Below the pieces are notes generated by a model. It saw only the letters and a list, made by a program, of their open reading frames with translations, did not search any database and was not told the origin of the DNA. The translations under genes and the position numbers were made by a program. A stretch of DNA of 64,000 nt, taken from the NCBI RefSeq assembly GCF_963973945.1, contig NZ_CAXBBV010000009.1, positions 53,108 through 117,107 on the forward strand. The letters are read 5' to 3'. Origin of the DNA: an uncultured Roseivirga sp. GTDB taxonomy: Bacteria > Bacteroidota > Bacteroidia > Cytophagales > Cyclobacteriaceae. Each line of letters begins with the position of its first letter. Within the stretch, counting starts at the first letter, position 1. Below, in pieces: positions 7,926 to 24,553 of the stretch.

Positions 7926-8263
7926 ATTAAGGTTTTAATTGATGATGGTTTTATGATTTAATATTAAGGATGTTTTTTAGATAATTATCAGATGAAATTA
8001 ATACTTGTTAATTCATGGAGACCTAATACGCTCATAGATTAGCATTCTACTTTCTCCAAATCATCTGAAACACAGTTTGTTGATACTAGTATAAATGCAG
8101 CAGGGTGGCCATTTTTCTAAACTAAAATTTGTTTGCTCTTAATTTCAGGTAGATGATATTTTTTAAGCCGCTTGAAATATATCTGTTTTCATCTGAACTC
8201 ACTGAGCATTATATTGTGGGTTATAAAGTATTTTTTATTTCATTTTTTATAAAAACTCAAACA

Positions 8264-10255
8264 ATGAATAAACGCCTGCTTACCTTTCTCATGCTGGTCA
8301 CTACCACAATGGTTATGGCTCAGAATCCACTTCCGCTTAGGAAGTCGGTGGAGACTACGAAACGTGCCATTCGCACGGACGTACCACTTCCTAACCCAAT
8401 TATGAATGCTCTCGAAGCAAAAACGAGAGATTTTTCTGGAAAACCAGGGCCAAACTATTGGCAGCTGGAAACTGACTACACCATCAAAGCCAGTTTAAAC
8501 CCGCAAACTCAAACCATATGGGGAAGTGAAACGATTACGATTCAGAACAATAGCAATCAGCCGATGGATCAAATCGTACTGAGGCTAGACCATAATATTT
8601 TCAGAGCTGATGTACCGCGTGGTTCTTCGGTTCCTGCCGAAACTACTGAAGGAATGGTCATTACTCGTATGGTGGTAAATGGCGATGAAGTAGATTTAGG
8701 CGCAAGATTTAGCTTTAGAAGAAGGGGTGATGCTCCAAAGCTACAAGTCTATGGCTTACAACAAACGGTAGCGAGTATTGTATTGGCAGAGCCAATTCCT
8801 GCCAAGAGTACTGGCACTTTAGAAATTGATTGGAATACGAAATTGCCTGGTGGCGAAAATGGAAGAGGCCATAGAATGACGCAGCGTTGGGATTCTAATG
8901 TTTTTCAGCCTACACAGTGGTTTCCGCGTTTGGCCAAGTTTGATGATATGCGAGGCTGGGAAACCAATGTTTATTTAGGCCCTGCGGAGTTCTTCAATAA
9001 CTTTGGCCGTTTTGATGTGAGCATTGATGTACCTGCAGGTTGGATTGTAAGTGGAACAGGGGTTTTACAAAACCCTGAAGAGGTGCTTTCGGCCCAAACA
9101 AGAGAGCGTTTAACTAAAGTACTGGATTCTGATGCTGAGATAACCATTGTAGGCGAAAATGAAAGAGGTGCTGGAAAAGCAACTGCCGAAGGAGAAAACC
9201 TTGTATGGCGATTTGTAGCAGATAAGGTGAATGACTTTGCTTGGGCTGCTTCGCCAGACTTTATGTGGACAGCCACGAGGGCTACCATTCCTGAAAAAGG
9301 GCCGATTCCTATTCATATGGTATACCTGCCAGAAAGAGCAAGATTGTTTGCAAGAGCAGGGGAGATTACAAGACATGCATTGGAGTTTTACTCAGATCTT
9401 TGGGCACCTTATCCTTTCCCCCAAATGACGATGCAAGATGGTCCAAGTGCTGGAATGGAATACCCAATGGTGGTGAACTCTAACCAAGGAGCGGCCGATC
9501 ATGAAGTGGCGCACCAATGGTGGCCAATGATGGTAGGTACAAATGAGACTCGCTTTGGTTGGATGGATGAAGGTTTTAATACCTATATGAATATTCTTTC
9601 CGCTGCCGATAGCAGGGGTGAACCAGTTAATTTAAATGGAAGAGGGGCGAGTTACGGTCGTAGAAGTGGTAGTGATGATGAAGCAACCATGATGTGGCTT
9701 TCAAATTACGCTGGTGATGGTTATGGTTTTCAGACGTACAGTAAAGCGCCTTTAATGTTGTCTATGCTAGGCGGTATCGTAGGAGATGAGGCCGTGATTA
9801 ATGCCATGAAGAAATACACCAAAACTTGGGCTTTTAAGCACCCTTCTCCTTGGGATTATGTGTTTTTTATGAATAATGAATTGGGGCAAAACCTTGAGTG
9901 GTTTTGGTACTATTGGCTATGGACAACTGAGTCGGTTGATGGTTCAATTCAGAAAGTAAATACTGGGTCAACTACTAATGTTACGGTACACCAAGCTGGT
10001 CAAATGCCTTCACCAGTGGTGCTTAAGGTTGAATTTGAAACCAGTGGTCCAGCAATTAAGTCGATGAATAATGCCAAAATGATTGACGCCAATACAGCAA
10101 TTGTTACTTGGCCAGCCAACGTTTGGTTCAATGGCGATCGTACTTTTAATGCTGAACTTAAGTTTGGAGGAAGAAAGATTAAGAAAATTACCCTTGATCC
10201 TGACGGCAGATTCCCAGATAACAATCCTGCGGATAACGTTTGGGAGAATAAATAG
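8264..10255 (+). CDS. M1-family zinc metallopeptidase, secreted
   Basis: GMEYP, HEVAHQWW (HExxH) and downstream WMDEGFNTY. The start is moved from 8153 to ATG 8264 (MNKRLLTFLML...), which gives a signal peptide. Confidence 0.9.
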   Translation: MNKRLLTFLMLVTTTMVMAQNPLPLRKSVETTKRAIRTDVPLPNPIMNALEAKTRDFSGKPGPNYWQLETDYTIKASLNPQTQTIWGSETITIQNNSNQPMDQIVLRLDHNIFRADVPRGSSVPAETTEGMVITRMVVNGDEVDLGARFSFRRRGDAPKLQVYGLQQTVASIVLAEPIPAKSTGTLEIDWNTKLPGGENGRGHRMTQRWDSNVFQPTQWFPRLAKFDDMRGWETNVYLGPAEFFNNFGRFDVSIDVPAGWIVSGTGVLQNPEEVLSAQTRERLTKVLDSDAEITIVGENERGAGKATAEGENLVWRFVADKVNDFAWAASPDFMWTATRATIPEKGPIPIHMVYLPERARLFARAGEITRHALEFYSDLWAPYPFPQMTMQDGPSAGMEYPMVVNSNQGAADHEVAHQWWPMMVGTNETRFGWMDEGFNTYMNILSAADSRGEPVNLNGRGASYGRRSGSDDEATMMWLSNYAGDGYGFQTYSKAPLMLSMLGGIVGDEAVINAMKKYTKTWAFKHPSPWDYVFFMNNELGQNLEWFWYYWLWTTESVDGSIQKVNTGSTTNVTVHQAGQMPSPVVLKVEFETSGPAIKSMNNAKMIDANTAIVTWPANVWFNGDRTFNAELKFGGRKIKKITLDPDGRFPDNNPADNVWENK

Positions 10256-12284: not shown

Positions 12285-13439
12285 TTATGTACCGGGAACG
12301 CAGGTATTTTTGATAAACTGGTTCTTCAACACGTAGGTCTTGTTGTAGTCTACAGAAAAGCGACTGGTGGTCATTTGGCAGTCAAAGCTTATTTCGTCAC
12401 CTTCAGAAATCAGGTTAAAATCAGTTTTGGGTAAGGCCGCGAAATTACAAGAAATGGGTCTTGAGAAGTCTTCTAAACGATTTACAATAATTGCATTTAC
12501 TTGACTTAGGGCATCTTTCATTAAGCTTTCAGAACTGAATTCTTTCTTTAAAACATCTTCAGAAATAAACTCTACATCGCGCCCCACTACTTTTCCATTA
12601 CGGCTAATACCTTCCGACTCTAAGCTAAATTCGTTTCTGAAAAAAGTATGTATAACTGCCAGTTTAACAAAGGTATCTTCATCCTCAAAACTCAAGTCTT
12701 GATAAGACTGCTTAAGTTGACTTTGATTAGGTGCTACCATAAATGAGTCGATTGGTAATTCGCGCTTATCGTACCAAATTTCGTGACGTTGATACTCATA
12801 AGCTTCGAGAATATTTCCGGCTGAACTTTTCTCACTCATACTTCTGGCGTACATATTCACTTCAGTGGCTACATAGTGAAAGCCATTTCGCTCTCTAAAG
12901 AAAGGGATTTTATAAGGCTCTTTAAGCTCCCATTTACCTTGGTATTTGTATGATGGATAGGAACAGTCGGAGGGTAGGTCATCCAAGGACATGAAAGGGT
13001 TTACATAGGAGGTTTCAAAACTCCATTTTAACATTCCATCCCGTGACTCCTTATTAGAAAGAGGGGTTGTTTTTGGGAGTGTACTTTGATAAGCGAAATA
13101 AACCGACAAAGCCACTAGTAATAAAAGGAGTGCATAAAGCACTGCGAATTTCCTTTTGTAATTGGGGTTCTGATCAGTGACTTGACCACTCTTTAATTGA
13201 GTAAGTTCTTTTTCTAGCCCTAAGAGTTTTAGAATTCTGTCGGTATTCTGGATGGCACGTACATATTCTCCTTCTGTTGCACTTGAGTTAATAAGTCTTG
13301 AAAATTGAGCATCACTATAGCCCAGCTTTCTGGATATTTCAGAATTGCTGGCTTTTTCAAACCGCTTTAAATCAGGGTCAAACGGACCGTGAAGCTTAGT
13401 TAGTTTTGTTACAAATTCCTGATACTTATCTATTGCCAT
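12285..13439 (-). CDS. Hypothetical membrane-anchored protein with an N-terminal HTH-like domain (candidate one-component regulator)
   Basis: SNSEISRKLGYSDAQFSRLINS is HTH-like. It is followed by a coiled coil, one hydrophobic helix (FAVLYALLLLLVALSVYFAY) and a ~260-aa soluble C-terminal domain. Confidence 0.6.
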   Translation of the reverse strand: MAIDKYQEFVTKLTKLHGPFDPDLKRFEKASNSEISRKLGYSDAQFSRLINSSATEGEYVRAIQNTDRILKLLGLEKELTQLKSGQVTDQNPNYKRKFAVLYALLLLLVALSVYFAYQSTLPKTTPLSNKESRDGMLKWSFETSYVNPFMSLDDLPSDCSYPSYKYQGKWELKEPYKIPFFRERNGFHYVATEVNMYARSMSEKSSAGNILEAYEYQRHEIWYDKRELPIDSFMVAPNQSQLKQSYQDLSFEDEDTFVKLAVIHTFFRNEFSLESEGISRNGKVVGRDVEFISEDVLKKEFSSESLMKDALSQVNAIIVNRLEDFSRPISCNFAALPKTDFNLISEGDEISFDCQMTTSRFSVDYNKTYVLKNQFIKNTCVPGT

Positions 13440-13461
13440 CCACTGCGTTTCTTAGATTAAC

Positions 13462-13491
13462 ATTCGTTGAAATCCGTTAAAATTCGATAAA
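13462..13491. promoter_or_regulatory. Triple 10-bp direct repeat (candidate operator)
   Basis: ATTCGTTGAA ATCCGTTAAA ATTCGATAAA, one helical turn apart, in the divergent regulator/susC intergenic region. Confidence 0.45.
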
Positions 13492-13644
13492 ATAGAATAT
13501 AATTCCTTAAATATCACAAATGCCAAATTTTCTTTTGTAAGATGCGATACGGTTGGTAGAGTTAACTGCTCTATTTTAACTAATCGTTGTCCTTCCTTTG
13601 TCTCAAAGGATGAAGTAAAATTTTTAAGAAACAAATAATTCTAT

Positions 13645-16600
13645 ATGATCAAGTTTTCTAAAATAGCAATCTTTTGCCTTTTGTGTATCATTAGTCAGCA
13701 TGGCTTTGCACAAATTAAGGTAACTGGAAAAATTGTTGATGATACCGGTCTATTTATGACTGGTGTATCAATATTGGAGCAAGGTACCGGAAACGGAACC
13801 GCTTCAGGTGCAGATGGTACTTATACTATTACTGTAAAGGATGCCAGTTCTATTCTACAGTATTCATTTTTAGGTTTTAAAACTGTCACTCAAACTGTAG
13901 GCAATCAAACCTCCATTAATATTACTATGGAAGAGGTGGTCTCTGAACTAGAAGGTGTAGTTGTAACCGCAATTGGTTTAAAAGAGAACAAGGACAATTT
14001 GGGCTATGCCAACACAACAGTTCAAGGAGGAGTAGTTTCTAAGGCAGGAGAGCCCACTTTGCTCAACGGGCTTTCAGGAAAAGTGTCTGGGGTTCGTATT
14101 TCCAAAACTTCTGGCGACCCGGGTGCTGGTTCATTTATTCAAATTAGAGGACTTTCGAGTATTACGCGCGATAGCCAACCTTTAATTGTTGTAGATGGTG
14201 TTCCTATTAGCAATGATAACAGAGGTGATGGTGGCACTGGGGGCGTAAGCAATGAATCGCGACTCAACGATATTAATCCTAATGATATTGAGAATATTTC
14301 TGTACTAAAAGGCGCTTCAGCTGCTGCGCTTTGGGGAACAAAGGCTTTGGGTGGTGTTATATTCATTACCACTAAAAAAGGCGACTTCAACAAAAAGCTG
14401 AGTATTACTTACCGAGCGAGCTATTCGCTTGATAAGATTAGTCAGAAATATCCTTTGCAGACCGCATATGGTCAAGGAGATAATGGTGTCTATAACCAAG
14501 CCGCTAGAGATTCATGGGGAGATAAGATTTCTGATCGCTCGGGAGGATTGGATGAGTTTAATACCTCAGGAAGCTTTTTTGTTGGGCAAGATGGGGTGAC
14601 TTACTACCCAATTGTTTCAAAAAATTCTAAAACGATTTACGATGACCAGAACTTTAATCAAGCCTTTCAGAATGGTCAGTTTATAGAAAATAACCTAAGC
14701 CTTACTGCTGGCAACGACAATAGCCGAATTTATTTCAGCTTAAGTGATTTAGACCAACAAGGCATAATTAGAAAAAATTCTGACTATCGTAGAACTACCG
14801 CGAGAGTAAATGCAGAGTACCTACTTTCTCCAAACGTAAGTATCACGGCTAATACAACTTATTCCAGAACCACTTCAAACAGGATTTTAAAAGGAGCTAG
14901 TTCTTCGGGCTTTTACCTTGGTTTGTTAAGAACACCAGCCGATTTCGATCAGTCGGGTTATAGAGGAGATTATTATGCGAGCAGTACTTCAGCTCCAATT
15001 TCTAACAGACATCGCTCATACAGAGAACCGTTAGGTGCCGATAACACCGCAGTTTACAATAACACCCTTTGGACTTTGAATGAGCAGGAGAATCAGGCGA
15101 ATACCGATCGCTTTATGACCAACTTCACTTTGTCTGCCGACCCATTTGATTGGTTGAACTTGAAGGCTCGTGTTGGATTAGACCATTATACTGAAAAGAA
15201 AGAAGAGTTTTTCACCCCGGGTTCAGCCGCTGGAGCTTACAGCACAGGTCTGTTTGGTACTAATATAGCCTCTAATACCATTTTCAACATGGATTATATT
15301 GCTACAGCTACCAAAACTTTTAATGAAAATTTTAACGGTTCATTATTAGTAGGGCTGAATTACAATGCCAAGAAATTAGAAACTAGCGGAAACGAAATTA
15401 CCAACTTCACTTTGTTTACAGATGTACAAAGTCCTGTAAGAGATATTGACAACGCATTCCCTGAAAATAGAATTTCGACCAGTACTTTTGGCCAAGAAAA
15501 AACAGCTGCTATTTATACTTCAGCTAACTTCTCGGCTTATGACATGCTTTATTTTAGCGGTTCATTAAGGGCAGAAAAGGCTTCAACTTTCGGTGATGTT
15601 TCAAATAAGCCATTTTACTTTCCATCAGCTTCATTGGCTTGGCAGTTTTCGCAGCTTGACGCTTTACAGAATGATTTGATGTCATTTGGTAAACTCCGTG
15701 TTTCTTATGGAGAAGTGGGAGTACAGCCAGCACGCTACAATACTTCAAACGTATTTGTTTCACCAACTTATGGCGATAGCTACGGTGGTGGTTTAGGACT
15801 TGGTTTTTACGGTAACGGAGGTTTTGTACCGAGTACTAACCGTGGAAATTTCAGCCTAAAACCAGAAAGAAAGAAGGAGACAGAAATAGGAATGGACCTT
15901 AGGTTTTTAAAAGACCGACTGTCATTTAGTGGTACATATTATACCAACACCACAAGCGATGTACTATTGAACTTCCCGATAGCAAACTCAAGAGGTTTCG
16001 ATGAAATCTATGCCAACGGGGCTGAGATCAGTAATAAAGGATTAGAATTAGACCTTGGCTATACCATTATCAAAAAGCAAGATTTTACTTGGCAGGCCAA
16101 TGTGATCTTCAGTAAGAATAAGAATAATGTAGAAAACCTAGCTGGAGTTCAATCTATTGAGTTGGGTGGTCTTGCGGCCGTAAACTCTAGAGCAGTAGAA
16201 GGTAAGCCAATAGGTATACTTTGGGGATCTAGAACTTTAAGAGATGCTGAGGGTAATATTGTATTTGATGATTATGGTTTCCCTGAACAAGATCAAACTG
16301 AAGGTATTATTGGTGACCCTAACCCAGATTGGCAAGGAAGTTTAGTTACGCAAGTTTCTTATAAGAACTGGTCACTTTCAGCGCTTTTCGAAACTTACCA
16401 AGGTGCCGATATATATGCAGGAACAAAATCTGTATTGGCGGATTTAGGCCGCTGGATAAGCACAGGCGATGAAGTAACAACCGACCAAAACTTGCTAGAT
16501 AGCCAAGGTAACCTTATTCCTATAGGAACAACTTTCAGAGGCAATATCTACGATTTTGGCGCGGGACCAGTAGCCTTAACAGAATCATGGTATAATGGTG

Positions 16601-16890
16601 ACGGTGGTTATTTCAGTGGTGGTAATGACGAACTCTATATCGAAGATGGTTCATGGACGAGGTTAAGAGAATTGACTTTGTCGTACCGCATCAAACCAGA
16701 TTGGTTGAGCAAAATGGGAATCAATTCAGCTTCTCTTTCAGCAACTGGTAGAAACCTCTTTATATGGACAGAATTTGAGGGTAACGATCCTGATACCAAT
16801 TTAACGGGTGTAGGTTCTGCAAGAGGTATTGATTACTTCAACAATCCAGGCACTAAATCTTATGTGTTTACGCTCACTGCTACATTTTAA
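13645..16890 (+). CDS. susC: SusC/RagA-family TonB-dependent outer membrane receptor
   Basis: Signal peptide, CarboxypepD_reg-like N-terminus, plug motif (IQIRGLSS...PLIVVDGVP...DINPNDIENISVLKGASAAALWG) and C-terminal aromatic (...TATF). Confidence 0.96.
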   Translation: MIKFSKIAIFCLLCIISQHGFAQIKVTGKIVDDTGLFMTGVSILEQGTGNGTASGADGTYTITVKDASSILQYSFLGFKTVTQTVGNQTSINITMEEVVSELEGVVVTAIGLKENKDNLGYANTTVQGGVVSKAGEPTLLNGLSGKVSGVRISKTSGDPGAGSFIQIRGLSSITRDSQPLIVVDGVPISNDNRGDGGTGGVSNESRLNDINPNDIENISVLKGASAAALWGTKALGGVIFITTKKGDFNKKLSITYRASYSLDKISQKYPLQTAYGQGDNGVYNQAARDSWGDKISDRSGGLDEFNTSGSFFVGQDGVTYYPIVSKNSKTIYDDQNFNQAFQNGQFIENNLSLTAGNDNSRIYFSLSDLDQQGIIRKNSDYRRTTARVNAEYLLSPNVSITANTTYSRTTSNRILKGASSSGFYLGLLRTPADFDQSGYRGDYYASSTSAPISNRHRSYREPLGADNTAVYNNTLWTLNEQENQANTDRFMTNFTLSADPFDWLNLKARVGLDHYTEKKEEFFTPGSAAGAYSTGLFGTNIASNTIFNMDYIATATKTFNENFNGSLLVGLNYNAKKLETSGNEITNFTLFTDVQSPVRDIDNAFPENRISTSTFGQEKTAAIYTSANFSAYDMLYFSGSLRAEKASTFGDVSNKPFYFPSASLAWQFSQLDALQNDLMSFGKLRVSYGEVGVQPARYNTSNVFVSPTYGDSYGGGLGLGFYGNGGFVPSTNRGNFSLKPERKKETEIGMDLRFLKDRLSFSGTYYTNTTSDVLLNFPIANSRGFDEIYANGAEISNKGLELDLGYTIIKKQDFTWQANVIFSKNKNNVENLAGVQSIELGGLAAVNSRAVEGKPIGILWGSRTLRDAEGNIVFDDYGFPEQDQTEGIIGDPNPDWQGSLVTQVSYKNWSLSALFETYQGADIYAGTKSVLADLGRWISTGDEVTTDQNLLDSQGNLIPIGTTFRGNIYDFGAGPVALTESWYNGDGGYFSGGNDELYIEDGSWTRLRELTLSYRIKPDWLSKMGINSASLSATGRNLFIWTEFEGNDPDTNLTGVGSARGIDYFNNPGTKSYVFTLTATF

Positions 16891-16910
16891 TTCTCATAAA
16901 GAAGAAAACG

Positions 16911-18329
16911 ATGAAAAAGATATACTACATAATTTTGGTTTCCCTTCTCATAGTCTCATGCGAAGACCTATTTGAAGGCGTCAATAATGACCCCAATAAC
17001 CCTATAAGTGCTCCTTATGATAAAATTTTAACAGGTGCCGAAGTGGGAAACATTATCCTACAGACGGGAGAAACTGCTAGAAGAGCAGGCATATTTGCTG
17101 GTTATTATACAGGAATAGACAGGCAGCACTTAGGCTTTAGCCAGTATACAGTAACTACAAGTGATTTTGATGCCATATGGGATGATGCATTTGTAAACAC
17201 CCTTCGAAACGCTAAAGTAGCAAAGCAAAGTGCGATTGATGCGGGTATTACTGGTGTAACCATTGGAATAACCCAAACTTTAGAAGCTATGGCATTTGGA
17301 ACAGCCACTTCTTTATATGGTGACATTCCTTTCGATGAAGCAATTTTTGAAATAGAAAATCCAGTATTCGAAGACCAAACCGCTGTGTATGGTAAAATTC
17401 AAAATTTATTAGATGAGGCCATTACAAACCTACAATTAGGAACAGGAAGACCACCAAGTGGGTCTGATATTTACCTTGATGGTGATCCACAAAAATGGAT
17501 TCAGGTAGCAAATACCCTCAAAGCTCGATATTACATGCATACGCGTGAATATCCTCAGGCTTATGCTGCTGCTCAAAACGGAATTAATGCCAGCGCCAAT
17601 GGTCTTTATGGTCCACATGGCTCAGGATTAGACGAGTCTAATTTGAGCTACCAGTTCTTTGGCGTCTATTCTCGCGCTGCCGATTTAATTGTTTCCGACT
17701 TCATGACCAGTTTAGTTGCTCCTACAGCTGGTACAAACCCAGATTTCGCCAACTACCGTGGTAATGCTAAGACAGATGAAACTGGCCGTTATGGTTATTA
17801 TTTTCAGGTGCAAGGTGTAGGAGTACAACCGAACACAGTAGATGGACTTGCTGCTCAAACCGCATCGGCCGCTTTGGCTACTTATGAAGAGAACTTGTTG
17901 ATTTTAGCTGAAGCAGGTTTCAGGTCTAGTGGCTTTAATACTGGTTTGCAACACCTCAATGAATTTAGGGCTTATATGGATGCGGGTGGTTATTTAACCA
18001 ATGCCAATGCAAGCAATGTTCAATATGATCAATACACGGCTCTTGATTTTGCTAACGGAGGTATTGAAAACCCTGACAATCAATCTGCTGACAATGCCTT
18101 GTTAAGGGAAATTTTGCAAGAAAGGTATGTAACATTGTTTGGTCAGATAGAAGGCTTTAATGATACAAGACGTACAGAGAATGAATCCATCGTAAGAGTA
18201 CCAGTAGAGCCAAATGTAGGAGCGCAGTTGCCTCAACGATTTATTTATCCGCAGTCAGAAATCGATAGAAACAGCAACATTCCAAACCCGATACCTAACT
18301 TCTTTTCACCTACTAAGGTGAATCAATAA
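16911..18329 (+). CDS. susD: SusD/RagB-family lipoprotein
   Basis: Lipobox LLIVS-C, NNDPNNP, LYGDIPF and C-terminal P.RFIYP..E...N, directly after susC. Confidence 0.93.
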   Translation: MKKIYYIILVSLLIVSCEDLFEGVNNDPNNPISAPYDKILTGAEVGNIILQTGETARRAGIFAGYYTGIDRQHLGFSQYTVTTSDFDAIWDDAFVNTLRNAKVAKQSAIDAGITGVTIGITQTLEAMAFGTATSLYGDIPFDEAIFEIENPVFEDQTAVYGKIQNLLDEAITNLQLGTGRPPSGSDIYLDGDPQKWIQVANTLKARYYMHTREYPQAYAAAQNGINASANGLYGPHGSGLDESNLSYQFFGVYSRAADLIVSDFMTSLVAPTAGTNPDFANYRGNAKTDETGRYGYYFQVQGVGVQPNTVDGLAAQTASAALATYEENLLILAEAGFRSSGFNTGLQHLNEFRAYMDAGGYLTNANASNVQYDQYTALDFANGGIENPDNQSADNALLREILQERYVTLFGQIEGFNDTRRTENESIVRVPVEPNVGAQLPQRFIYPQSEIDRNSNIPNPIPNFFSPTKVNQ

Positions 18330-18352
18330 CCGAACAAAAAAATCTTTCATAG

Positions 18353-19129
18353 ATGAATTGTAATCATAGAAAACGGATATGCCAGTTGTTTTTGCTGGCT
18401 ATCCTTTTACTTCCAACCTCTCTTTTTGGTCAACAAGATACGCTTAGGGTGTTATTTGTGGGCAATAGTTATACCTACTTCTGGAATTTACCGCAACTGG
18501 TAACGGCCATGGCCGAATCGCAAGGTATTCCTATAATCACCCGTCAGTCTACTGTTGGCGGAAGTACTTTAGAAGAACATTGGAAAGAAGAGAAAGAAAC
18601 TAAAACTAGAGCATTATTAGAAAGTGGTGATTGGGATTATGTAGTAATGAATAATCACAGCATGAGCACTATTAATACACCAGCCGACTTTGATAAGTAC
18701 GGAAAACTGTTTGCAGAGCTTATCAAAGCTAAAGGAGCAAAGCCAGTTTTTTATATGACCTGGGCACGCAAAGCAGATCCTTCTATGCAGCCCACAATTA
18801 CAAAAGGCTACAACGAACTTGGTAAATCAACCCAATCTAATGTAGTGCCTGTTGGGGAAATATGGAAAAAGAGCATTGGGCTAAAGCCTGAAGTTGATTT
18901 GTATTTTCCAGATGGTAGTCATCCGTCTCCAGAAGGAACTTACTTGAATGCACTGGCTTTTTATAAGTTCTTAACTGGAAATGCTACGGCCGATATCCCA
19001 CATAGATTGACCAGAATTGATAAAGATGGCGAAACCATGTATTTGGCCATTATAATGGAAGATGTGGCTGACTACTTTCAAGACTTGGTAGATAGTTTCG
19101 AAATTAAAAACCTGCCATATGAGCGATAA
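18353..19129 (+). CDS. SGNH/GDSL-family hydrolase, secreted
   Basis: VLFVGNSYT (block I serine) and DGSHP (block V DxxH), with a signal peptide. Confidence 0.85.
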   Translation: MNCNHRKRICQLFLLAILLLPTSLFGQQDTLRVLFVGNSYTYFWNLPQLVTAMAESQGIPIITRQSTVGGSTLEEHWKEEKETKTRALLESGDWDYVVMNNHSMSTINTPADFDKYGKLFAELIKAKGAKPVFYMTWARKADPSMQPTITKGYNELGKSTQSNVVPVGEIWKKSIGLKPEVDLYFPDGSHPSPEGTYLNALAFYKFLTGNATADIPHRLTRIDKDGETMYLAIIMEDVADYFQDLVDSFEIKNLPYER

Positions 19130-20591
19130 ACGTAAATGGTTATCACTCTTATTAGGGCCTTTGGCTTTTGTGGTGCTCGAAATAATCGGTGGCCCTGAAA
19201 GCATGTCGGAGAGTGCATTTCACCTGTTGGCCATTACCATATGGATTGCCATTTGGTGGGTTACAGAAGCAATTCCTATTGCTGTAACCGCCCTTTTGCC
19301 TATTATTCTATTCCCAATTTTTAATGTGATGGACTTGTCCAGCACAACGGCTTCATTCGGTCATAAATATGTATTCCTTTATGTAGGTGGCTTTATTATA
19401 GCCATTGCTATTGAAAAATGGGGCTTACATAAACGTATTGCCTTGACTATTATCAATGCCATTGGTACCAATATGGTAAACATCATTTTGGGTTTTATGC
19501 TGGCTACGGCATTCCTTTCAATGTGGATTTCTAATACGGCTACTTCTGTAATGATGCTGCCAATTGGAATGGCCATTGTAAGCCAGCTTAACCAGAGTGA
19601 TTTGGCCGATAAGAAAGTATCGGGCATGTTTGGTAAGGCACTCATGTTGGCAATTGCCTATAGTGCATCTATAGGAGGAATGGCCACTTTAATTGGAACT
19701 CCACCCAATTTGGTTTTGGTAGGTGTGGTTGAAGAAACCTACGGGGTCGAAATATCATTCTTGCAATGGTTTAAGTTTGGCTTTCCTGTAGCAGTAGTAC
19801 TTCTCATTGTTTGCTGGAAATACCTTACCAAATATGCTTTTAAATTGAAGAAGGCTGAGTTTCCTGGTGGAAAACAAGAGATCAGTCGATTGTTGAAAGA
19901 GCTAGGCAAACTGAGTAGAGAAGAGAAATCCGTTCTGGCTGTATTCATTACCACGGCTTTCTGCTGGATTACACGATCGTTCATTTTACAAAAGTTTATT
20001 CCGGCTATTGACGATACCATTATTGCTATAATAGCAGGTGTGGTGCTCTTCATTCTTCCTTCGAGCAAAAAAGGAGAACGAATAATCAATTGGGAAGAAG
20101 CTGTAAAAATGCCTTGGGGCATCATCTTACTGTTTGGAGGTGGAATGGCCTTGGCCGAAGCATTTGGAACTACAGGGCTAGCTTTATGGATTGGTTCTCA
20201 AATCACTATTGTCGATGGAGTTTCAATGATTTTAATCATTCTTATTCTGGTAGCAGCCGTCAACTTCTTGACAGAACTTACTTCAAACTTAGCAACAACC
20301 GCCATGTTATTGCCTATTCTGGCACCTGTTGCTTTAGCCTTTGATATGAACCCATACATGTTGATGGTTTCGGCTACATTAGCCGCTTCTTGCGCATTTA
20401 TGCTTCCCGTAGCTACTCCACCCAATGCGGTGGTTTTCGGTTCGGGTTACTTAAGAATTCCTGACATGATGAAAGCGGGTGTTTGGATGAACCTCATCTC
20501 GATTTTCTTTATCACAGCAATGATTTATTTCCTGCTGCCCTCTCTTTGGGGCATTATTCCCGATGAGTACTCTAACCTAGTAGGAAACTAA
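19119..20591 (+). CDS. DASS/SLC13 family sodium:dicarboxylate or sulfate symporter
   Basis: Multi-TM protein with SMWISNTAT, GGMATLIGTPPN, TELTSNLATTAML and PVATPPNA motifs. It overlaps the SGNH stop. Confidence 0.92.
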   Translation: MSDKRKWLSLLLGPLAFVVLEIIGGPESMSESAFHLLAITIWIAIWWVTEAIPIAVTALLPIILFPIFNVMDLSSTTASFGHKYVFLYVGGFIIAIAIEKWGLHKRIALTIINAIGTNMVNIILGFMLATAFLSMWISNTATSVMMLPIGMAIVSQLNQSDLADKKVSGMFGKALMLAIAYSASIGGMATLIGTPPNLVLVGVVEETYGVEISFLQWFKFGFPVAVVLLIVCWKYLTKYAFKLKKAEFPGGKQEISRLLKELGKLSREEKSVLAVFITTAFCWITRSFILQKFIPAIDDTIIAIIAGVVLFILPSSKKGERIINWEEAVKMPWGIILLFGGGMALAEAFGTTGLALWIGSQITIVDGVSMILIILILVAAVNFLTELTSNLATTAMLLPILAPVALAFDMNPYMLMVSATLAASCAFMLPVATPPNAVVFGSGYLRIPDMMKAGVWMNLISIFFITAMIYFLLPSLWGIIPDEYSNLVGN

Positions 20592-20627
20592 AAATTAGAA
20601 TGACGAACAAATTTTAAAATTACTAAC

Positions 20628-22469
20628 ATGAAAAATAAACGACTGAAAATCACCATGCTCGTTCTTGCAACTCTTTTTGTTGTAAGCACTTGTAAGGACG
20701 ATGACACGCAGATTATTTCCGATTCGCTTCGCGTTCTAACAGCGAAAGTTAATGAGCAAAGCTTGAAAGATGAGCCATCGGGAGTTGATACCGAAATTAG
20801 CCTCGAACTAGTCCTTAGCCATTCACTGAATACTGCCGCTTTTGAAAGCGCTTTGTCAATTTCTTCGTCAACAGGCGAAGTGAGCAAAAGTTTTAGTTAC
20901 TCCAATTCCAATTCTATAGTAACCATTACCAATACAGAAGAACTAGACTTTGAAACAGAGTATACTATCTCTATTGTCGCAGGTGAGTATGGCGAAAATG
21001 GAAATACGTTAGATAAAACGATTTCTTACACTTTTACGGTAAGGGAGTTTGTTCCACCTAACGTTACTTTATCAAGAGATCTATCGAGTATTTCTGAGGC
21101 TGGGGGAGTAGCTACTATTACAGCTACAATGAGCGAAGCCGTAAATGAAGAAGTAACAGTTAACCTTACTTTTGCAGGAACCGCGGGCGCTACGGATTAC
21201 TTGGCCAGTGGTACTTCAATAGTAATTCCAAGCGGACAGCTTACAGGCAATATTACTGTAACCGCCATTGATGATGCAGAAACTGAAGGATTAGAAGATG
21301 TTATTGTTTCTATTGAAAGTGTAACCAATGCCATAGAGTCAACTCCCCAAGAGGTTTCTTTTAGAATAGAAGATAACGATGCGGGCGGAAGAGGTTTTAT
21401 TATCAACGAAGTACTTTTCGATCCGGCTTCTGGAGACGCTGGGGATGCGAATGGCGATGGCACAAGAAGCGCTTCTGAAGACGAATTTATTGAGTTTGTT
21501 AATGACAGTGATGTGGCGATTGACTTAAGTGGCTTTACAGTTTATGACACTGATAACTTTGCGACACTCACACCAAGACATACTTTTCCGAATGGAACAG
21601 TTGTGCCAGCACATGGCGTATATGTGCTTTTTGGTGGAGGAACGCCTTCAGGTAATTTTGGTGGAGCAGCTTTTGGTGTTTCAACTACAGGGAATCTAAA
21701 CCTGAATAATGCAGCAGATCAAATTATCATATTAGATGCTTCGGGTAACGAATTTTTGACTTTTGATGCGGCTGTTGAAGGAGCTGGAATCGATTTTGGT
21801 TCTGACCAGTCTGTAACACGTTCCCCAGATATTACAGGTGACTTTACTTTACATACAACCGCTAACGCAAGTCTGATTTACTCACCAGGAACCATGGCAG
21901 ACGGTACTGCTTTCGATATGAGTGGAGGTGGTAATGCAGGTTTAGGTTTGATCATTAATGAAGTATTATTCGATCCAGCTTCGGGAGATGCAGGAGACGC
22001 TAATGGAGATGGAACGAGAAGTGCTTCTGAGGATGAATTTATCGAATTTGTGAATGACAGCAACAGTCCAATAGACCTTAGCGGTTTTACATTATATGAT
22101 GATGGCAATTTTGCCACACTCATTCCTCGACACACATTTCCCAACGGGACAGTAATTCCTGCCCATGGAGTTTATGTATTGTTTGGTGGAGGAGCACCAG
22201 CAGGCGATTTTGGAAATGCTCAAGTAGGCGTTTCCACTACAGGAAACATGAATCTAAATAATGCAGCAGATAAGATTATTATTTTGGACGCATCTGGTAA
22301 TCCATACTTGTCATGGGATTCAGCTGTAGATGGAATAGGTCTTGATTTTGGCGCGGATCAGTCGATCACTAGATCGCCAGACATTACTGGTTCATATGTA
22401 TTGCATCAAACTGCCAATGGCGCATTGTCCTTCTCGCCTGGAAAAAAAGCAGATGGAACAGATTTTTAA
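20628..22469 (+). CDS. Lipoprotein with Ig-like (Big_5) and Calx-beta-like domains and two tandem lamin-tail domains
   Basis: Lipobox VVST-C, and two copies of IINEVLFDP...GDANGDG...EDEFIEFVN...IDLSGFT (about 21396-21911 and 21945-22466). Confidence 0.8.
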   Translation: MKNKRLKITMLVLATLFVVSTCKDDDTQIISDSLRVLTAKVNEQSLKDEPSGVDTEISLELVLSHSLNTAAFESALSISSSTGEVSKSFSYSNSNSIVTITNTEELDFETEYTISIVAGEYGENGNTLDKTISYTFTVREFVPPNVTLSRDLSSISEAGGVATITATMSEAVNEEVTVNLTFAGTAGATDYLASGTSIVIPSGQLTGNITVTAIDDAETEGLEDVIVSIESVTNAIESTPQEVSFRIEDNDAGGRGFIINEVLFDPASGDAGDANGDGTRSASEDEFIEFVNDSDVAIDLSGFTVYDTDNFATLTPRHTFPNGTVVPAHGVYVLFGGGTPSGNFGGAAFGVSTTGNLNLNNAADQIIILDASGNEFLTFDAAVEGAGIDFGSDQSVTRSPDITGDFTLHTTANASLIYSPGTMADGTAFDMSGGGNAGLGLIINEVLFDPASGDAGDANGDGTRSASEDEFIEFVNDSNSPIDLSGFTLYDDGNFATLIPRHTFPNGTVIPAHGVYVLFGGGAPAGDFGNAQVGVSTTGNMNLNNAADKIIILDASGNPYLSWDSAVDGIGLDFGADQSITRSPDITGSYVLHQTANGALSFSPGKKADGTDF

Positions 22470-22560
22470 TTTCAGACAAGTTAGTTCAATTAGTTAGTTC
22501 AAGTTCTGGGTTGTTTGGGTTTCATGTTGGCCTCGAGCAATTCCAGAACTTAATTATAAA

Positions 22561-23937
22561 ATGTATATGAGAAGAATAGGAAAGTGGTTTTATATAGTTT
22601 TATCTATGGTGGCTGTAGCGGCTTGCTCAGGTGGAGGAGACCCTGCACCTGAGAACCTGTCGCTGCTTGCAGTGAATGTAAACGGAGGGGCTTTGGCAAA
22701 CGGAGCCGAGAATTTACCAACAGAATTTCAATTGGAATTGGCTTTTTCAGCCGCCTTAAACACAGCTAAATTCGAGTCAGCTTTTAGTCTTATTGGAGGA
22801 ACTGGAAACCCATCTTACACTATTACTTATGCCAATGCTTCATCAAAAGCTATCGTTTCAATCAGCAACCTAGATTATAATACAGTGTACGATTTGGAGC
22901 TATCGGCTGGGGTTTTAGGAAACAACGGTCAGTCGTTGCAGAATGGACTTGCTCTATCTTTTACTACTCAGGAGGATGAAGTAATAAGAGACATGGCGCC
23001 ATGTACCTCTGCGTCCCAAGATTGTTACCGCTCCGTTTCTTTAGAAGATGCTTCTCAGAATACTGGTAATTTTAAATTTTACAGTACTCACCCAATTTAT
23101 CTGGAAAATGCTGAATGGGAAAAGTTGAAGTATGCTGTTATTGTAGTTCATGGAGCCAATCGTGATGCTGATAATTACTACAATTGGTTACTCAGTGCTT
23201 TAACCAATAATGGGTTGCTTGAAAACACCATTCTTATTTCTCCTGAATTTATAAGCAGTACTGGAGCAACCACCGATGACCTGTACTGGAACAGTGATTG
23301 GCGAGAAGGACAGAAGTCAACCAGTAATGCAAAGATTAGCTCCTTTGAGGCTATTGACGCTTTGTTGAATCGTTTGTCAGATAAAACTGTATTTCCAGTT
23401 TTGGAAAAAGTAATCGTTACTGGCCATTCATCGGGTGCTCTTTTCACTCAGGTATATGGAGCTACCAATGTGACTGAATCTAGTTCAAATCATTTGAGCT
23501 TCGATTATGTGGTGGCAAACAGTCAATATTTTTACTATCCAGATAATCAGCGTTATAACGAACAAAATAATCAATTCTACACACCAACGGGATGTGGTAC
23601 ATATAACCACTGGCCTTTGGGCTACGCAGGTGCTCCATCATATGTAACCACAAGAACTGAAACAGAAATTGATGCCAATTTATTGGGTAGAAACTTTACC
23701 TACTTTCTTGGTAATGGTACTGGAAGTGATTCAGCCTTAAATACTTCAGATTGTGGAGCCGTATTATTAGGTTCATCACGACTTAAAAGAGGAGAGCATA
23801 TTTACAATTGGTTGCAAACACAGTATAGTGGCCAAAATAGCTCCACCAAAGTAATTGTGAATGGCATTGGTCATGATGGCCAAGGAATGTATCAGTCAAA
23901 CAACTTTAAGAGTCTATTGGAAACGCTTTTGAAATGA
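22561..23937 (+). CDS. Lipoprotein with an Ig-like domain plus an alpha/beta hydrolase domain
   Basis: Lipobox VAA-C, VVHGANRDA, nucleophile elbow GHSSG and C-terminal GIGHDG. Confidence 0.75.
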   Translation: MYMRRIGKWFYIVLSMVAVAACSGGGDPAPENLSLLAVNVNGGALANGAENLPTEFQLELAFSAALNTAKFESAFSLIGGTGNPSYTITYANASSKAIVSISNLDYNTVYDLELSAGVLGNNGQSLQNGLALSFTTQEDEVIRDMAPCTSASQDCYRSVSLEDASQNTGNFKFYSTHPIYLENAEWEKLKYAVIVVHGANRDADNYYNWLLSALTNNGLLENTILISPEFISSTGATTDDLYWNSDWREGQKSTSNAKISSFEAIDALLNRLSDKTVFPVLEKVIVTGHSSGALFTQVYGATNVTESSSNHLSFDYVVANSQYFYYPDNQRYNEQNNQFYTPTGCGTYNHWPLGYAGAPSYVTTRTETEIDANLLGRNFTYFLGNGTGSDSALNTSDCGAVLLGSSRLKRGEHIYNWLQTQYSGQNSSTKVIVNGIGHDGQGMYQSNNFKSLLETLLK

Positions 23938-23975
23938 AGGGTTTTATTCTCCTTTCTAAAACTCGAAAGTCATAA

Positions 23976-24014
23976 AAAAGCCCCTTGTAAGAATTGAATT
24001 TACAAGGGGCTTTT
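23976..24014. terminator. Bidirectional intrinsic terminator
   Basis: AAAAGCCCCTTGTAA-N9-TTACAAGGGGCTTTT after the sus operon and facing the convergent gene. Confidence 0.85.
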
Positions 24015-24031: not shown

Positions 24032-24553
24032 CTAGAAGTCGGAAAGCGTGTACTGTATCTGTAAATTGTACATGTCAGAAATCATACCGGCAGTATTTGC
24101 CCCTTGAATTCTATATGAAATACCCATTCCCGTACTTTTCAAAAACGAATCTTCATGACCAAAATCAGAAACAAGAGGAAATTCTTCACCCATTGTAAGG
24201 TTATCAAAAACGATTTCGTTAAACCCTAAATCATTTGAAATTTGATCAGCAAAAACGTGATTATATATTAAATGTAACTCTTGGGCCAATGGTAGAGCGC
24301 TACCAGATAGCATTTGCACTTCTACATTGCGTTCTTTTTTTATTGAACCTTCAGTATAAAGTGCACCAGAGTAGTTCATTAAAATATCTTGAGAAATCTC
24401 AGATCTAGAAGTTTCGAAATTATGGCTAATGCCTAAGCTGGCTAATTCAGGCATAATAAGAGTAATGCTATGCGATGCTGAATTTCCTTGTCCAAAAGCT
24501 GCTTGAGAAATAAATAAACAGATGATAGAGAGAAATTTTAATTTCTTTGTCAT
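24032..24553 (-). CDS. Hypothetical secreted beta-rich protein
   Basis: 173 aa with a signal peptide (AFG-Q), an SHSITLIMPELASL start and a QIQYTLSDF end. Confidence 0.6.
   Translation of the reverse strand: MTKKLKFLSIICLFISQAAFGQGNSASHSITLIMPELASLGISHNFETSRSEISQDILMNYSGALYTEGSIKKERNVEVQMLSGSALPLAQELHLIYNHVFADQISNDLGFNEIVFDNLTMGEEFPLVSDFGHEDSFLKSTGMGISYRIQGANTAGMISDMYNLQIQYTLSDF

Follow-up and report, generated by a model that had tools for sequence, protein, structure and literature searches.

Within a 64,000-nt stretch of DNA from an uncultured marine Roseivirga sp. (contig NZ_CAXBBV010000009.1, positions 53,108 to 117,107; hereafter the window), we analyzed a utilization locus built around a SusC/SusD pair (SusCD). 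On balance, this locus probably serves the use of an acidic, non-glycan polymer or oligomer of a beta-linked C4-dicarboxylic acid, of the polymalate or polyaspartate type. The strongest argument comes from a recurring triad: hydrolases of the PahZ1 family, lipoproteins with Calx-beta and lamin-tail (LTD) domains or LTD alone, and C4-dicarboxylate carriers are found together, with the carrier drawn from three unrelated families (DASS, DAACS, and DcuC), and therefore point to an acidic polymer of C4-dicarboxylate units. We describe a Sus-like locus with several unannotated components, whose reading as non-glycan, dicarboxylate-releasing, and polymer-directed is partly supported; beyond family membership, we infer its functional steps.

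Gene content and conservation of the locus

Gene assignments in the window were based on an open reading frame (ORF) listing and on Pfam and NCBIfam profile scans. The ORF listing contains all six co-oriented + strand genes (13645–23937) that a first-pass annotation had described. The first (13645–16890, +) encodes a SusC/RagA-type TonB-dependent transporter (TIGR04056, 605 bits against a cut-off of 368) with CarboxypepD_reg, Plug (PF07715), and barrel regions and no STN domain. It is followed after 20 bp by the gene for a SusD-like lipoprotein lid (16911–18329, +; PF12771 SusD-like_2, E = 1.8e-28). Next come a DUF4886/SGNH hydrolase of 258 amino acids (aa), predicted to be periplasmic (18353–19129, +; PF16227), and an inner-membrane Na+-coupled dicarboxylate symporter of the DASS family (19119–20591, +), whose start overlaps the end of the DUF4886 gene by 11 nt. 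The symporter assignment, made already on first reading, is secure, with a TIGR00785 score of 322 bits against a cut-off of 199. The last two genes encode a 613-aa lipoprotein with Big_5, Calx-beta, and two LTD domains (20628–22469, +; Pfam), in which Cys22 is followed by KDDD and the isoelectric point (pI) is 4.05, and a 458-aa lipoprotein (Cys22) that combines a Big_5 domain with an alpha/beta hydrolase (22561–23937, +; assigned from motifs, alignment, and fold). The lamin-tail lipoprotein proposed earlier is thus borne out by Pfam, and the order SGNH hydrolase, DASS, LTD protein, alpha/beta hydrolase corrects the one in which the genes had been listed.

A pattern scan that took one genome from each species returned 290 relatives of the alpha/beta hydrolase, and the best 80 loci of the 290 were compared by tblastn synteny and all-against-all ORF clustering. 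The gene set was syntenic in ∼70 of these 80 loci. Its only recurrent neighbors were the six genes themselves and a divergent gene at 12285–13439 (− strand), and all seven were present wherever the contig was long enough (58–80 loci per gene). The conserved unit is seven genes, so the six-gene unit described earlier was one regulator short. The prediction that the genes would be conserved together held, because synteny of the seven extends over three orders, with hosts that include members of the Cytophagales (Roseivirga, Marinoscillum, Reichenbachiella, Algoriphagus, and Marivirga), Saprospirales (Lewinellaceae, Saprospiraceae, and Phaeodactylibacter), and Flavobacteriales (Christiangramia, Flagellimonas, Salegentibacter, and Gillisia). 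Metagenome-assembled genomes (MAGs) from activated sludge and a salt lake also carry the locus. Four gene orders were seen, in which only DASS alone or DUF4886 together with DASS relocates. The locus proteins of Roseivirga ehrenbergii KMM 6017 are 91%–98% identical to those of the window.

The locus is rare and patchy, occurring in ∼1% of sampled Bacteroidota: among 401 evenly drawn genomes, the hydrolase was found in two and the regulator in three, and both were absent from one genome of the same genus. When the window was compared with a locus-free genome of that genus (G185), synteny around an ABC-F gene was not kept and no clean insertion boundary emerged. A literature search found no paper describing this locus. 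Complete Bacteroidota-type loci also turned up on two contigs with other labels, one in a MAG labeled Planctomycetota (L042; JBLGAM010000010.1) and one labeled Roseobacteraceae (L044; CAYMYI010000014.1). The hydrolase of the former adjoins an Algoriphagus one on the tree, with branch lengths of 0.02–0.03, and both contigs are probably mis-binned.

Glycoside hydrolase (GH), polysaccharide lyase (PL), sulfatase, and peptidase families had no match among the six proteins in Pfam or NCBIfam, in agreement with the first-pass annotation. No carbohydrate-active enzyme (CAZyme) was found in any of the ∼70 syntenic copies either, which upholds the non-glycan reading. Judged by PULDB-style definitions of a polysaccharide utilization locus (PUL), adjacent susC and susD genes are present, and a linked GH, PL, or carbohydrate esterase is found neither among the six genes nor in the ∼70 loci (Pfam and NCBIfam). 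Like canonical PULs and the peptide importer RagAB, the locus has a tandem SusC/SusD pair, a surface binder and enzyme, a periplasmic finishing enzyme, an importer, and a regulator. It differs from canonical PULs in having no CAZyme, a dicarboxylate symporter instead of a sugar carrier, and serine hydrolases of uncharacterized families.

SusCD pairs usually serve glycans, and many SGNH families are carbohydrate esterases (PMC9487903). The locus might then de-acylate a glycan bearing succinyl or malyl esters, with the glycoside hydrolases encoded elsewhere; distant DUF4886 relatives do lie near GH-looking genes, as judged from N-terminal sequences alone. We consider this very improbable: the ∼70 loci, 10-kb flanks included, hold no GH, PL, or sugar transporter, the sole conserved inner-membrane carrier is of dicarboxylate type, and it is peptidases and anion porins, instead of CAZymes, that accompany the hydrolase clade and the LTD module.

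Surface lipoproteins and the SGNH hydrolase

Lipoboxes are present in the SusD protein (55 of 62 orthologs), the LTD protein, and the alpha/beta hydrolase. In the latter two, a stretch of acidic residues comes after the lipobox Cys, CKDDD in the window and D/E-rich at positions +3 to +6 across orthologs, a pattern described as the surface-export signal of Bacteroidota lipoproteins. Both are therefore predicted to be surface-exposed, and the Big_5/Calx-beta/LTD lipoprotein is presumably the polymer-binding protein. The two lipoproteins share a homologous N-terminal Big_5 domain (window positions 20628–21050 and 22561–22990); in four short loci, the LTD query aligned with the hydrolase N terminus at 32%–38% identity. 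Big_5 may be a common spacer or a docking module for the SusCD complex. The locus proteins are all acidic (pI 4–5.8), so that binding of a polyanion would need Ca2+ or Mg2+. These computed values run counter to the cationic, PahZ1-like enzyme that might have been expected.

The first reading had proposed an SGNH esterase, and a gene of the SGNH superfamily is present: PF16227 matches, and block I (S39), block II (G69/G70), and block V (D187/H190) are invariant in 64 DUF4886 orthologs, which include the residues Ser39 (in GNS), Asp187, and His190 (in DxxH). Most of the 64 carry an SPI-type signal without a lipobox. With this plain signal peptide, the DUF4886 protein should be periplasmic. A profile search of the PDB retrieved two relatives, 4s1p and 4i8i, both uncharacterized. 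More distant DUF4886 relatives (36%–43% identical) are stand-alone genes in mixed contexts. Characterized SGNH enzymes are esterases or acyltransferases, and DUF4886 has no known function (PMC9487903).

A putative depolymerase related to PahZ1

The catalytic domain of the 458-aa lipoprotein matched no specific Pfam family. It has an HG oxyanion motif at H197, the nucleophile S290 in a GHSSG elbow, and H438 in GIGHDG, and with Cys22 these motifs confirm the alpha/beta-hydrolase lipoprotein recognized at the outset. S290, H438, and the R407/R410 pair of an RxxRGE motif are invariant in the alignment of orthologs. We modeled the protein with AF2 from a 24-sequence alignment (pLDDT 90) and compared the model with solved structures using Foldseek. 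The best matches were LpqC (3d0k, 2e-15) and two PahZ1 poly(aspartic acid) hydrolases (6ve6, 2e-14; 9o7u, 5e-14), with target TM scores of 0.69–0.76 (0.71–0.76 for the PahZ1 pair); siderophore esterases ranked far behind (∼1e-9). A profile of the hydrolase family searched against the PDB retrieved the same three entries (E = 4e-4 to 3d0k), with HGxxRNxxDY, GHSxG, RxxRGE, and GIGHDGQxM in common. In PahZ1 of Sphingomonas sp. KT-1, S157 aligns with S290, the catalytic His with H438, and R246 with the invariant R407. R246, or R215 in PahZ1 of Pedobacter sp. KP-2, is the substrate-positioning arginine (PMC13017698). By predicted fold and by profile, the hydrolase is a remote relative of the LpqC/PahZ1 clade, and we presume it to be a depolymerase. 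The family has at least 259 protein clusters in a 5.8-billion-protein database; two distant paralogs (in G265 and G117) had uninformative genomic contexts.

PahZ1 (KT-1 and KP-2; 6ve6 and 9o7u) and LpqC thus have the same alpha/beta serine hydrolase fold as the window enzyme and share with it HGxxR(N/D)xxxY, GxSxG, RxxRGE, G(I)GH, and the substrate-positioning Arg. The substrate of PahZ1 is a polyanionic, beta-linked poly(C4-dicarboxylate), and we propose the same for the window hydrolase. The earlier idea of a polymer substrate gains support from this kinship, since the only assayed members of the clade depolymerize poly(aspartic acid). The similarity in sequence is nevertheless very remote and detectable only with profiles. 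Unlike PahZ1, the window hydrolase has an N-terminal Big_5 domain, a lipoprotein anchor, ∼60 extra residues, and two conserved disulfide pairs, and it is acidic (catalytic domain pI 5.1) where PahZ1 is cationic. Thr387 occupies the place of PahZ1 Asp225; a nearby Asp, either D390 or, in some members, an inserted one, may take over its role. PahZ1 itself is known only for its action on synthetic thermal polyaspartate (tPAA) and has no described genomic context, and Pedobacter has no known PahZ2 (PMC13017698).

The top fold match, LpqC, is annotated as a polyhydroxybutyrate (PHB) depolymerase, and the hydrolase has a faint match (E = 1e-3) to NF050058, the model of extracellular short-chain-length polyhydroxyalkanoate depolymerases. 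One could accordingly imagine a PHB or polyhydroxyalkanoate system in which a depolymerase at the cell surface yields 3-hydroxybutyrate oligomers that are imported and then cleaved by a periplasmic hydrolase. However, the LpqC annotation is not assay-based, the NF050058 match scores 18.6 bits against a cut-off of 150, PF10503 (Esterase_PHB) is absent even at E ≤ 1 from 24 members of the hydrolase family, and the PHB-depolymerase and CE1 models do not match the hydrolase. The product would moreover be a monocarboxylate, whereas the linked carriers (DASS, DctA, and DcuC) are all of C4-dicarboxylate type, and there is no linked 3-hydroxybutyrate dehydrogenase. We consider such a system extremely improbable.

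PahZ1 homologs in related loci

One genome without a window-type hydrolase (G165) was picked up by the regulator profile. Its locus has the regulator, SusC, SusD, DUF4886, DASS, and a Big_5/Calx-beta lipoprotein in the usual order, and ends with a gene for a 305-aa lipoprotein that matches PahZ1 of KT-1 (6ve6) at E = 1.8e-51 and PahZ1 of KP-2 at 3.3e-50, with a GFSAG box as in KP-2. Judged by these scores, a true PahZ1 homolog fills the hydrolase slot in this genome. An hhalign comparison of the window hydrolase family with this homolog (P0122) gave a probability of 89.6% (E = 1.9e-6).

PahZ1-like genes occur in 21 of the 401 Bacteroidota genomes. In two of these genomes (L108, G253:C12:51001-65683; L109 and L110, G153:C31:48001-83500, with two PahZ1-like copies in G153), the gene lies beside a MocR/GntR regulator, with a divergent set of one or more Calx-beta-LTD lipoproteins, DcuC (374–382 bits), the beta-aspartyl peptidase IadA (TIGR01975; 400 and 386 bits, cut-off 331), an OprO/P-type anion porin, and an M14 carboxypeptidase. 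The Calx-beta-LTD module of the window protein (residues 142–429) is 53% and 43% identical to those of these two genomes. Their gene content marks them as a different kind of locus, of an "acidic peptide" type, and they look built for a beta-aspartyl polyamide because of the two metallopeptidases and the amino-compound type of regulator. A literature search found no description of a locus combining PahZ1-like, MocR, IadA, DcuC, and anion-porin genes. In a third genome (L113, G301:C1:421001-441000), genes for DctA (564 bits), a porin-like protein, and an LTD lipoprotein come after the PahZ1-like gene.

As a group, these sister loci share with the window a PahZ1-family hydrolase, a Calx-beta-LTD lipoprotein (43%–53% identity), and a C4-dicarboxylate carrier. 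They differ from it in having OprO/P-like porins in place of SusCD, metallopeptidases (IadA and M14) in place of the SGNH hydrolase, and a MocR/GntR regulator, and they never contain a tartrate dehydrogenase. A further PahZ1-like gene (L111, G246:C1:378001-398000) adjoins a SusC-like gene and, to go by position and N-terminal sequence alone, probable genes for SusD, a sigma factor, and an anti-sigma factor. An amidohydrolase, a PvdQ-like acylase, and a D-aminopeptidase-like protein are encoded there too, and this set hints at D-amino-acid peptides.

The carrier and the imported product

The closest solved relatives of the DASS protein are SLC13A2/NaDC1 (296 bits) and NaCT (287 bits). Its hairpin motifs, SNT and SNL, and its VATPPNA motif match those of NaDC1/NaCT; the sulfate carrier NaS1 has SNP and VANPPNA. 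A sulfate or sulfo-ester reading of the carrier is ruled out by these motifs and by the lack of a sulfatase. A second DASS in the window genome (L089, G000:C13:9205-10656) adjoins sucD (succinyl-CoA synthetase alpha) and a nitroreductase gene and is probably a housekeeping dicarboxylate carrier; the presence of this second gene implies that the copy in the locus is dedicated. In one Cyclobacteriaceae locus (L021) DASS is missing, and a DctA gene (648 bits, cut-off 513) lies 39 bp after the hydrolase.

Enzymes of dicarboxylate metabolism have joined the operon in some lineages. A tartrate/D-malate dehydrogenase gene (TIGR02089; 547 bits, cut-off 470) closes the operon in 11 Cytophagales loci; it shares the strand of the hydrolase gene that precedes it and in most cases starts 4–10 bp past it. 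The dehydrogenase-bearing loci form essentially one clade on the hydrolase tree (aLRT 97), and the number of independent events is accordingly small. TIGR02089 scored above its cut-off in six of 50 host genomes, with four of the six copies in the operon. In one genome (L032 12954–14007; CP170458.1) the operon copy is split into 232-aa and 152-aa pieces, with an intact copy (554 bits) elsewhere, and may be decaying. A phosphoenolpyruvate carboxykinase (PEPCK) gene lies directly 3′ of the hydrolase in five loci (Reichenbachiellaceae plus one other). In a single Saprospiraceae locus (L049 11335–12117), an agmatinase-family gene (TIGR01230, 202 bits) starts 42 bp past the hydrolase, which would fit an arginine-bearing substrate such as cyanophycin.

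Uptake of a C4 dicarboxylate by DASS is the best-supported step of the scheme that we propose below. Of the di- or tricarboxylate release suggested originally, the dicarboxylate part is strengthened by the NaDC1-like DASS, the DctA swap, and the linkage to the dehydrogenase or PEPCK, and the tricarboxylate part finds no support. The window genome has no tartrate dehydrogenase, no Fe-S tartrate dehydratase, and no class I fumarase. Since both tartrate enzymes are missing, the product in Roseivirga would be an ordinary acid of tricarboxylic acid cycle type or aspartate. For the window genome we rejected tartrate as a universal product on the same grounds and because so few hosts have the dehydrogenase.

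The tartrate dehydrogenase within the operon, the two esterase-type hydrolases next to a dicarboxylate carrier, and the marine and coastal hosts would also suit de-esterification of small tartrate or malate esters (caftaric and chicoric acids of seagrasses; caffeoyl and sinapoyl malate) with import of the acid. Such a function is quite improbable: the window genome and most hosts lack the tartrate enzymes, the nearest relatives of the hydrolase act on polymers, no gene for the phenolic moiety was found, and activated-sludge and salt-lake MAGs hold the locus too. A surface esterase would, in addition, release a 150-Da acid outside the cell and make SusCD pointless. Small tartrate or malate esters, PHB, acylated glycans, siderophores, and sulfate all fit less well than a polymer of a beta-linked C4-dicarboxylic acid.

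Proposed mechanism and the linkage in the polymer

For a polymer substrate, the locus could work as follows. The very acidic Big_5/Calx-beta/LTD protein would hold the polyanion at the cell surface, probably via Ca2+, and the surface Big_5/alpha-beta hydrolase, by homology, would cut it into oligomers. These would enter through SusCD, as is typical of the family. In the periplasm, the SGNH hydrolase would free monomers, a role taken elsewhere by PahZ2, IadA, and M14 enzymes. The NaDC1-like DASS would then carry the C4 dicarboxylate into the cytoplasm, where the acid would feed central metabolism, with a tartrate/D-malate dehydrogenase or PEPCK added to the operon in some lineages. The divergent regulator would sense the periplasmic product and control the operon.

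For the window version, we tentatively favor an ester, that is, a polyester of the polymalate type, as a possible substrate. We lean this way because the locus has only serine hydrolases and no peptidase, the hosts lack IadA, and the dehydrogenase acts on 2-hydroxy-dicarboxylates: peptidase genes are absent from all ∼70 syntenic loci, and the IadA-type beta-aspartyl peptidase TIGR01975 was found in none of 51 host genomes. The two candidate polymers are exact isosteres, poly(beta-malate) having esters where poly(beta-aspartate) has amides.

Several points weigh against a polymalate-type substrate, or against a beta-linked polymer in general. Genomes that host the window type of locus, the window genome among them, mostly lack the dehydrogenase, and the Fe-S tartrate dehydratase as well. 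The dehydrogenase is specific for D-malate and tartrate, and natural polymalate is made of L-malate. We know of no natural poly(beta-aspartate). The threonine aligned with the catalytic Asp of PahZ1, and locus proteins, including the catalytic domain of the hydrolase, that are acidic by computed pI, set the system apart from cationic PahZ1. The only assayed relatives cleave amides and the sister loci carry peptidases, which by analogy argues for an amide. Polymalate, finally, is known only from fungi and slime molds (PMC9210645), with mangrove strains of Aureobasidium among the producers of Ca-polymalate (PMC9210645, PMC4528779).

The ester bond in the original proposal is not established, given the beta-aspartyl and M14 peptidases of sister loci that share the binding module, which point to an amide. 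The amide counterpart would be a beta-aspartyl-rich polyamide, such as polyaspartate-like stretches, aged or isomerized Asp-rich biomineral proteins, or a cyanophycin-derived backbone; the hydrolase would act in endo fashion like PahZ1, the SGNH enzyme would stand in for PahZ2 or IadA, and DASS would import aspartate. PahZ1 enzymes are proven beta-amide hydrolases (PMC13017698, PMC4456602), and a true homolog fills the hydrolase slot in G165. The Calx-beta-LTD module is 53% identical to that of loci with a beta-aspartyl peptidase (TIGR01975, 400 bits), an M14 peptidase, and anion porins. PEPCK, in turn, fits a route from Asp through oxaloacetate to phosphoenolpyruvate, and DctA can carry aspartate. 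A polyamide is thus the chief rival for the window locus, though unlikely in itself and slightly less favored than the polyester, given the absence of peptidases from the ∼70 loci and of IadA from the hosts, the record of the SGNH enzymes characterized so far (esterases or acyltransferases; PMC9487903), a tartrate/D-malate dehydrogenase that has no role in aspartate catabolism, and the NaDC1-like DASS proteins, which are not known as aspartate carriers.

Two known systems bear on the choice between ester and amide. A polymalate hydrolase of Comamonas acidovorans is described as a 43-kDa, outer-membrane-bound protein (Godde 1999, cited in PMC9210645). It resembles the window hydrolase in its outer-membrane association and similar size, and it degrades an acidic polyester, which serves as a carbon source, to malate. 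The purified enzyme is, however, reported in PMC9210645 as insensitive to serine-esterase inhibitors and as not behaving like a serine esterase, which counts against our proposal; the review cites no gene sequence for homology comparison. On the amide side, the cyanophycin utilization locus, summarized in PMC10206079 (citing Ben Hania 2017) as cyanophycinase, iadA, and a transporter, follows the same logic of scavenging an Asp-type polymer, but the S51 cyanophycinase given there is absent from the window locus.

It is conceivable, though short of probable, that the window locus and its sisters represent a new bacterial pathway for a natural beta-linked poly(C4-dicarboxylate) in marine and wastewater Bacteroidota, comprising a new depolymerase family, DUF4886 as the oligomer hydrolase, a Ca2+-dependent Calx-beta-LTD polyanion binder, a new class of regulator, and a natural role for PahZ1. 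Few non-glycan Sus-like loci are understood, and this one is compact and well conserved. If the proposal is true, functions would follow for DUF4886, for bacterial LTD/Calx-beta lipoproteins, and for an unannotated alpha/beta-hydrolase family, and the hydrolase could be the first bacterial polymalatase gene. PahZ1, so far studied only as a degrader of a synthetic polymer, would gain a genomic and ecological setting. A pool of acidic polyester or polyamide, not yet looked for, would be implied in marine and sludge organic matter. The hydrolases are also candidates for degrading polycarboxylate materials.

The divergent regulator

The divergent gene (12285–13439, −) is the neighbor of SusC in 58 loci, and in each of the three Bacteroidota genomes with the regulator it lies beside the locus. 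Its product has an N-terminal helix-turn-helix (HTH; residues ∼1–84), a coiled linker, one transmembrane (TM) helix (∼93–119), and a periplasmic part of ∼265 aa that is beta-rich with conserved cysteines. No match was found in Pfam or NCBIfam. Foldseek with the AF2 model (pLDDT 71) gave nothing significant, the best hit being a 0.75-probability match to ToxR/ToxS sensory domains. From its predicted layout, the protein is none of the usual PUL regulators (HTCS, ECF/anti-sigma pair, or SusR), and this HTH-TM-periplasmic-domain architecture may represent a new class of regulator for Sus-like loci. The intergenic region between it and SusC (13440–13644) presumably holds the promoters and an operator, as read from the sequence.

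Flanking features

An M1 peptidase gene upstream of the locus (8153–10255) is not conserved with the gene set. At the other end, the terminator noted at first pass is real: direct reading shows a bidirectional intrinsic terminator (23980–24014) with an A-run, an 11-bp GC-rich stem (GCCCCTTGTAA / TTACAAGGGGC, 23980–24010), a 9-nt loop, and TTTT to 24014. A consensus terminator scan made no call at this hairpin because its loop limit is 8 nt. The terminator separates the operon from a convergent gene (24032–24553, −) that encodes a 173-aa secreted protein with no family match; this gene is not conserved with the locus and shares the terminator with the operon.

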